Shown here in pieces: positions 19 through 177 of a stretch of DNA of 273 bases (position 1 is the first letter of the stretch; each line of letters begins with the position of its first letter). Below the pieces are notes generated by a model. It worked only from the letters and a program-made list of their open reading frames with translations, did not search any database and was not told where the DNA came from. The position numbers and the translations under genes were made by a program. The stretch is from Escherichia coli (GTDB lineage Bacteria > Pseudomonadota > Gammaproteobacteria > Enterobacterales > Enterobacteriaceae): assembly GCF_003334335.1 (NCBI RefSeq), contig NZ_QOWQ01000229.1; one strand, 5' to 3'.

Positions 19-177
19 ATGCGCCGCCTGAACCACCAGGCTATATCTGCCACTCATTGTTGTGAGTGTGGCGATCCCATAGATGAGCGAAGACGCCTGG
101 CCGTTCAGGGTTGTCGGACTTGTGCAAGTTGCCAGGAGGATCTGGAGCTTATCAGTAAACAGAGAGGTTCGAAGTGA
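19..177 (+). CDS. TraR/DksA family C4-type zinc-finger protein (small phage/plasmid-type transcription factor), 52 aa if started at ATG 19
   Basis: Manual translation of ATG(19-21) to TGA(175-177) gives MRRLNHQAISATHCCECGDPIDERRRLAVQGCRTCASCQEDLELISKQRGSK. The motif C14-x-x-C17-G-D-P-I ... C35-x-x-C38-Q aligns position by position with the F-plasmid TraR zinc ribbon (CEACGNPIPEARRKIFPGVTLCVECQ, recalled from memory). No in-frame stop between 19 and 175. The reading frame is also open upstream to position 1, so the true start could lie beyond the window; ATG 19 is the first in-window start and sits 2 nt after a TAA in another frame. Confidence 0.8.
   Translation: MRRLNHQAISATHCCECGDPIDERRRLAVQGCRTCASCQEDLELISKQRGSK
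161..167 (+). promoter_or_regulatory. Shine-Dalgarno-like ribosome binding site for the downstream ORF, embedded in the 3' end of the zinc-finger CDS
   Basis: AGAGAGG at 161-167, purine-rich and partly complementary to the 16S anti-SD, with 6-nt spacing to GTG 174. Confidence 0.5.

Follow-up and report, generated by a model that had tools for sequence, protein, structure and literature searches.

The window analysed here, a stretch of 273 nucleotides taken at its full length, very probably consists of the 3' four-fifths of the lambdoid phage gene orf73 and the start of ea22, with rare codons that follow the general codon usage of the prophage in which they lie. The gene is an already characterised phage regulator with prophage-typical codon usage, and the finding as such is already known. 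The preliminary description, a reading of the codons made without any tools, correctly pointed to a prophage gene residing in an enterobacterium; beyond the correct annotation, this result has little significance.

The window matches a lambdoid prophage in the chromosome of Escherichia coli SCU-104 with 100% identity over all of its 273 bases, and a search of a phage collection returned Escherichia phage PhiR5_1, likewise with 100% identity. The phages 933W, VT2-Sakai, Min27 and many other Stx1- and Stx2-converting phages are 99.3% identical to it, as are O157:H7 genomes. Altogether, matches were found in 3236 of 5426 complete E. coli genomes, with one to eight copies per genome. Among the 4984 matching places, 33 are plasmid-borne and may represent phage-plasmids or prophage fragments. 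Many Stx phage records, including those of 933W and VT2-Sakai, contain two places that match the window; a second orf73-like gene, L0141, has been described for 933W (PMC8614690).

In the SCU-104 prophage, cIII, kil, gam, bet and exo are followed by a DUF1317 gene (orf60a-like), two hypothetical genes, a gene annotated as TraR/DksA family transcriptional regulator, an ead/Ea22-like gene, several small ORFs, xis and int, after which the chromosome continues with mlrA, yohO and yehW onwards. PhiR5_1 has the same gene order as the SCU-104 prophage. The order exo - orf60a - (orf63) - orf61 - orf73 - ea22, running leftward to xis and int, is shared by SCU-104, PhiR5_1, lambda and 933W, and a conserved orf60a-orf63-orf61-orf73-ea22 block has been described for lambda, Phi24B and 933W (Donaldson and colleagues, PMC8614690). 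In lambdoid and Shiga-toxin phages, the exo-xis block belongs to the leftward early operon (pL).

The xis and int genes of the SCU-104 prophage directly adjoin mlrA. In K-12 MG1655, btsS, mlrA and yohO are contiguous and free of any prophage, and the orf73 locus is thus an insertion and not part of the core chromosome: an integrase gene marks the border of the integrated element that contains it, and the corresponding site in K-12 is empty. GC content runs from 44 to 54% along the prophage and from 51 to 56% in the chromosome past int, with a step at the int/mlrA boundary. The preliminary description had proposed that the gene belongs to a mobile element residing in an enterobacterium, and had regarded a core, non-mobile location or codon usage matching that of the host as evidence to the contrary; the gene proved to reside in a lambdoid prophage beside mlrA of E. 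coli SCU-104, and its codon usage departs from that of the host, as detailed below. The mlrA gene next to the prophage integrase is annotated with 702 nt (positions 25629-26330 of the SCU-104 locus, L001) versus 732 nt in K-12. This short mlrA would fit a prophage integrated at its 5' end, the gene (yehV) being a known integration site of Stx phages.

Within the window, reading frame 1 is open from the first base, which suggested that the gene enters from the left. The RefSeq coding sequence of orf73 indeed spans positions 19956-20177 of the SCU-104 locus and has 73 codons (WP_000774248.1), and its annotated ATG lies 45 nt upstream of window base 1. The full Orf73 protein of this allele reads MADLIDSASEIEELQRNTAIKMRRLNHQAISATHCCECGDPIDERRRLAVQGCRTCASCQEDLELISKQRGSK. 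Window bases 1-18 are coding and correspond to the in-frame codons 16-21. The genes and start signals in the window are:

Positions 1-177, plus strand: 3' 177 nt of orf73, codons 16-73 and the TGA stop (RefSeq coding sequence, translation, identity with lambda, Pfam, PHROG)
Positions 19-21, plus strand: internal Met22 codon, taken as the start by the preliminary description; no upstream Shine-Dalgarno pairing
Positions 162-167, plus strand: GAGAGG, Shine-Dalgarno sequence for the ea22-like gene, within the end of orf73 (pairing with the 16S 3' end, -7.9 kcal/mol)
Positions 174-273, plus strand: ead/Ea22-like gene, first 33 codons from a GTG start, continuing past the window end (RefSeq coding sequence, L001 20174-20989)

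The one long ATG-initiated ORF on the plus strand of the window covers positions 19-177 (52 codons and a stop), and this is where the preliminary description had placed its zinc-finger gene. A zinc finger, of the C4 type, is indeed present, but the 5' boundary did not hold, as the edge of the window led to a start placed 21 codons too late. When the 20 nt before each start are paired with the 16S 3' end, the annotated ATG yields -5.9 kcal/mol, versus +1.1 kcal/mol for the internal ATG. A 52-residue product starting at the internal ATG would moreover be devoid of the DxxDxA tip that is required for activity. We therefore rejected the ATG at position 19 as the true start on the grounds of annotation, comparison with lambda Orf73, the missing Shine-Dalgarno sequence and the loss of DxxDxA. 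The minus-strand ORFs at 41-127 and 105-266 and the plus-strand ORF at 83-187 were regarded as shadow ORFs that accompany the two annotated genes. The GC content, which had been given as roughly 50%, is 53.5% for positions 19-177, 49.1% for the whole window and 49.5% for the orf73 gene.

In lambda, the gap between ea22 and orf61, which bears no annotation, contains a 73-codon ORF on the minus strand (NC_001416, 30392-30613; L003 2893-3114). Its product is identical to SCU-104 Orf73 at 71 of 73 residues, the only differences being I4L and V48A, and this ORF is lambda orf73. The gene is annotated neither in the lambda record NC_001416 nor in the 933W record AF125520 (L007, about 4873-5094), and the orf73 match appears there solely under 'ea22' or L0069. 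These two reference records omit orf73 although it is a translated and characterised regulator of host transcription.

Immediately downstream, the GTG start codon of ea22 overlaps the orf73 stop codon (GTGA), and GAGAGG is separated from this GTG by 6 nt. The junction between the two genes is invariant in 84 loci, and lambda ea22 starts in the same way (MSEINSQALRE). The overlap suggests translational coupling of orf73 and ea22. After the fifth ea22 codon (VSEIN), at about window positions 186-192, the sequences diverge into several unrelated continuations (loci L008-L087), and in 16 loci the ea22 ORF stops right there (VSEIN*). This point is an apparent boundary of mosaic recombination, a short distance past the end of orf73.

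Further signals were noted in and around the gene. A perfect AGGAGG at positions 134-139 lies inside the coding sequence (CAG GAG GAT, Q60-E61-D62), has no start codon at a usable distance and is broken by GAA at codon 61 in several alleles. A terminator-like hairpin, AGGGAGC-TAC-AGGCTCCTT followed by the T-run TTTTATTATT (L001 19878-19905), precedes the orf73 start by about 60 nt and hence lies outside the window, between the orf61-like gene and orf73 and within the pL operon. A search of Rfam in and around the window returned a single match at chance level (17.5 bits versus a gathering score of 50, E=0.91).

By its sequence, Orf73 is assigned to the TraR family within the DksA/TraR C4 zinc-finger proteins. 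It matches Pfam PF01258 (zf-dskA_traR) at residues 33-64 (E=1.1e-8) and, over its full length, PHROG 54 ('DksA-like zinc-finger protein', phrog_54; positions 1-72 of 75, E=3.8e-25). The match to NCBIfam TIGR02419 (C4_traR_proteo) likewise covers the full model (1-64 of 64, E=1.1e-14) but scores 54.8 bits, slightly below the curated cut-off of 59.7. This family comprises the phage/conjugal plasmid C-4 type zinc finger proteins of the TraR family. Among proteins of known structure, YbiI (2kgo) and RNA polymerase-bound F-plasmid TraR (5w1s, 6n57 and others) were matched with E values of about 1e-4 to 1e-5, and the 73 residues of Orf73 align end to end with the 73 residues of TraR. The cysteines encoded in the window are arranged as follows:

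Positions 58-132, plus strand: C4 zinc finger, C35-x2-C38-x17-C56-x2-C59 (read from the sequence; Pfam)
Positions 61-63 and 112-114, plus strand: extra cysteines C36 and C53 (read from the sequence)

Lambda Orf73 also has six cysteines, with the extra ones at TraR positions 38 and 55 (PMC9239242). The DxxDxA motif is present upstream of the window, in the full gene of the SCU-104 locus, as D3-L-I-D6-S-A8; it is a hallmark of the TraR family (PMC9239242, PMC8614690) and needed for function (PMC9239242). In a phmmer alignment to chain M of 5w1s (chains of 5w1s and 6n57 were matched), Arg46 and Arg47 align with R48 and R49 of TraR, which contact the rim helices and beta' Si3 (PMC9239242).

The rare codons had been described as two ATA, two AGA, one CGA and one CGG, with CTG and CGC frequent, and the 52 codons at positions 19-174 contain exactly these numbers, together with three CGC and three CTG. 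In the full gene, 7 of 72 sense codons (9.7%) belong to the set ATA/AGA/AGG/CGA/CGG:

Positions 13-15, plus strand: ATA, Ile20, a third ATA that is absent from the preliminary description (codon count of the full gene)
Positions 43-45, plus strand: ATA, Ile30 (codon count); GTA (Val) in several alleles
Positions 79-81, plus strand: ATA, Ile42, in the zinc-finger loop (codon count)
Positions 88-93, plus strand: tandem CGA-AGA, Arg45-Arg46, with CGA at 88-90 and AGA at 91-93 (codon count)
Positions 115-117, plus strand: CGG, Arg54 (codon count); CGT or AGA in some alleles
Positions 163-165, plus strand: AGA, Arg70, also part of the ea22 Shine-Dalgarno sequence (codon count; 16S pairing)

These codons were compared with three codon tables. 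The core table comprises 101 SCU-104 genes (33,170 codons) from three regions, including 14 prophage-flanking genes, and is therefore a sample and not the whole genome; the prophage table holds 45 other genes of the same SCU-104 prophage (6,791 codons), and the highly expressed table 30 ribosomal-protein and elongation-factor genes of MG1655. All expected numbers of rare codons take the Arg and Ile content as given. The shares of the four codons are:

AGA among Arg codons: core 1.9%, prophage 15.9%, ribosomal-protein and elongation-factor genes 1.0%
ATA among Ile codons: core 6.4%, prophage 18.9%, ribosomal-protein and elongation-factor genes 0.3%
CGA among Arg codons: core 6.8%, prophage 13.8%
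CGG among Arg codons: core 10.4%, prophage 14.0%

The enrichment of rare codons relative to the host core is real. For the full gene with its seven rare codons, 2.07 are predicted from the core (P=0.0015), 2.25 from the 14 flanking core genes (P=0.0019) and 0.16 from the highly expressed set (P=3e-11), but 5.47 from the prophage (P=0.27). Rare codons are thus enriched throughout the prophage, and the enrichment is not specific to orf73. The claim of the preliminary description, which concerned 52 codons and four codon classes, is borne out in the same terms: six rare codons were observed versus 1.53 expected from the core (P=0.0012; P=5.5e-10 for the ribosomal-protein and elongation-factor genes), and 3.62 are expected from the prophage (P=0.10). 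The comparisons that it had proposed, of codon adaptation with the host genome and of composition with the flanking chromosome, point the same way; the codon adaptation index (CAI) of orf73 is 0.313 versus medians of 0.379 for the 101-gene core sample, 0.329 for the prophage and 0.672 for the ribosomal-protein and elongation-factor genes, and both the flanking genes and the GC step at the int/mlrA boundary set the locus apart.

A rare-codon content of 9.7% is reached by none of the 101 core genes (median 1.5%, maximum 8.2%) and by 4 of the 45 prophage genes (median 5.2%). The synonymous codons of orf73 favour prophage over core usage by a log-likelihood ratio of +14.7 bits. Among the prophage genes, rare codons make up 1-4% of gam, bet and exo and 11-17% of small accessory ORFs (ninE, orf60a-like, DUF4222, DUF7301); orf73 groups with the latter. 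Given its place in the upper tail of its own prophage, orf73 may have a small gene-specific excess. The host gene dksA, in comparison, has 1 rare codon in 150 and a CAI of 0.536. As an explanation, we infer weak selection together with base composition: the prophage is slightly richer in A+T than its host and would be only weakly adapted to the host tRNA pools, mostly in its small accessory early genes.

It might be argued that a gene of only 73 codons, whose CAI at the 11th percentile of core genes is not extreme and whose rare-codon classes were chosen after the sequence had been viewed, is an ordinary host gene with a chance fluctuation in its codons. This is hardly credible, as the P value of 0.0015 against the core was obtained with a standard five-codon set fixed in advance, and at least seven rare codons occur in merely 0.03% of 72-codon core windows, versus 4.4% of those from the prophage. 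The position of orf73 inside a prophage furthermore refutes an ordinary host gene.

The rare-codon content above that of every sampled core gene, along with the occurrence of TraR-family homologues in phages of Klebsiella, Vibrio, Pseudomonas and other hosts, could also indicate that the gene was acquired recently from a donor that does not belong to the Enterobacteriaceae and has a different codon dialect, its codons being as yet unadjusted to the new host. We consider such an origin very improbable. The allele family is widespread in E. coli lambdoid phages including lambda, where it has the same codons, and the matches in 3236 of 5426 E. coli genomes speak against a recent arrival. The GC content of 49.5% is close to that of the host, CTG and CGC are frequent, and the codon usage resembles that of the neighbouring prophage genes, which are long-standing genes of E. 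coli phages.

A functional reading would be that the rare codons act as a translational throttle, in which the three ATA and the CGA-AGA pair keep the growth-slowing Orf73 at a low dose, or, in a variant, that Orf73 synthesis is tied to the supply of rare tRNAs, either host argU and ileX or the ileZ-argN-argO of Stx phages. Taken together, these two versions appear improbable to us. A limit on dose would be plausible insofar as lambda Orf73 slows host growth (PMC9239242), and one carrier of the 99.3% identical allele, 933W, itself encodes three tRNAs, with the anticodons CAT, TCG and TCT:

Positions 21120-21371 of the 933W locus (L007): three tRNA genes next to stx2, ileZ (AUA), argN and argO in the GenBank record, CAT, TCG and TCT according to ARAGORN, the record and this program being the basis of the assignment

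By wobble rules, TCG would read CGA and CGG, and TCT would read AGA and AGG, so that the flagged codon classes would be covered. These tRNAs weakly keep a tRNA-dependent throttle alive. They are, however, located downstream of the late promoter pR', with pT as an additional putative promoter, whereas orf73 is an early pL gene, and the 25 kb of the exactly matching SCU-104 prophage that were examined (L001) contain no tRNA gene. Moreover, orf73 is not significantly richer in rare codons than its prophage neighbours (P=0.13-0.27). A literature search for ileZ, argN and argO in connection with rare codons yielded nothing directly usable.

The throttle also bears on how the rare codons vary among alleles. 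The 84 loci, which comprise 80 IMG/VR contigs as well as lambda, 933W, PhiR5_1 and SCU-104, collapse into 24 distinct nucleotide alleles, and in none of these has a rare codon been replaced by a common synonym at any of the 7 positions, an observation in favour of a throttle. The sole change at a rare codon is that of ATA30 to GTA (Ile to Val), and in some alleles rare codons have arisen anew, with ATT replaced by ATA at codon 11 in lambda and CGC by CGA at codon 47. Alleles diverged down to 86% protein identity sometimes exchange rare Arg codons for other rare Arg codons, which likewise favours a throttle. Among the other codons, however, 14 of 66 vary synonymously, and this contrast with 0 of 7 is not significant (about P=0.19); selection retaining the rare codons was therefore rejected. 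AGA70 is additionally fixed by a second role, as AGA-GG serves as ribosome-binding site for ea22, which overlaps orf73.

More specifically, the seven rare codons, chiefly the cluster of ATA42 and CGA45-AGA46 within the zinc finger, could be a selected, tRNA-dependent dose limiter of a growth-inhibiting RNA polymerase regulator that is relieved by the ileZ-argN-argO of Stx phages during lytic growth, which we regard as quite improbable. ATA42 is found in all lambda-type alleles and is kept in two Klebsiella phage homologues at 50-57% identity, and nine lambda-type and Klebsiella sequences hold ATA42 together with a rare Arg codon at R45. The wider comparison covered eight further TraR-family phage genes from enterobacterial hosts, with P2-like, Rosemountvirus, Proteus, T4-like and jumbo phages represented, and host dksA. 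Here, Ile42 is encoded by ATC or ATT in two P2-like phages, three Rosemountvirus phages, Proteus phage Pm5461, E. coli phage BF17 and dksA, a set in which jumbo phages are represented, and the Arg codons of these wider TraR-family phage genes are mostly CGT or CGC. The idea of positionally fixed rare codons (ATA for Ile42, a rare Arg codon at R45) was thus rejected, with ATC or ATT in 7 of 12 phage genes plus dksA, and shared ancestry accounts for the pattern. Across lambda-type genes, wider TraR-family phage genes and dksA, we found no position-specific conservation of rare codons, and this absence in the more distant genes argues against a throttle in general. General prophage codon usage remains the reading that we prefer.

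The product of the gene is best understood through its lambda counterpart. Lambda Orf73 has been shown to bind RNA polymerase and to complement a strain that lacks dksA (Gopalkrishnan et al., mBio 2022, PMC9239242). Produced early from pL, it regulates initiation independently of ppGpp and inhibits rRNA and ribosomal-protein promoters both in vitro and in vivo (PMC9239242). Its presence slows the growth of the host and raises the phage yield about fourfold after induction (PMC9239242). By analogy with this 97%-identical protein, SCU-104 Orf73 would act on RNA polymerase by the same mechanism. Its N-terminal helix, with the DxxDxA tip, may enter the secondary channel of the host RNA polymerase, a structural detail that is borrowed from TraR, and the globular C4 zinc-finger domain and the Arg pair could anchor the protein on the enzyme. 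The bound Orf73 would inhibit rRNA and ribosomal-protein promoters without ppGpp and thereby divert the cell to phage production.

Among known systems, lambda is the closest. Its Orf73 agrees with that of SCU-104 in its 73 residues, 71 of them identical, in its six cysteines and in its position between orf61 and ea22, and its gene shares the GTGA overlap with ea22 and all seven rare codons. The two alleles differ in I4L and V48A and in one further ATA in lambda, at codon 11. The setting also differs, as the SCU-104 prophage lies beside mlrA and has different immunity and accessory genes. From 933W, the examined portion of the SCU-104 prophage differs in the tRNA trio, which is present in 933W and was not found there. 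Over-use of ATA, AGA, CGA and CGG throughout the SCU-104 prophage is a trait that it has in common with prophage and horizontally acquired E. coli genes.

F-plasmid TraR resembles Orf73 in its length, its DxxDxA motif, the CxxC-x17-CxxC arrangement and the aligned R48/R49 pair, and the two align over nearly their whole length. Their sequence similarity is weak, however (E about 1e-4), TraR is encoded by a conjugative plasmid and not by a phage, and it has four cysteines in contrast to the six of Orf73. Unlike TraR, lambda Orf73 shows weak or no activation of the host promoters tested (PMC9239242). Host DksA belongs to the same C4 zinc-finger family (PF01258) and has the same target, RNA polymerase, but it is a protein of 151 residues with an N-terminal coiled coil and depends on ppGpp, whereas Orf73, with its 73 residues, would have a single N-terminal helix in place of the coiled coil and, by analogy with its lambda counterpart, would not require ppGpp.
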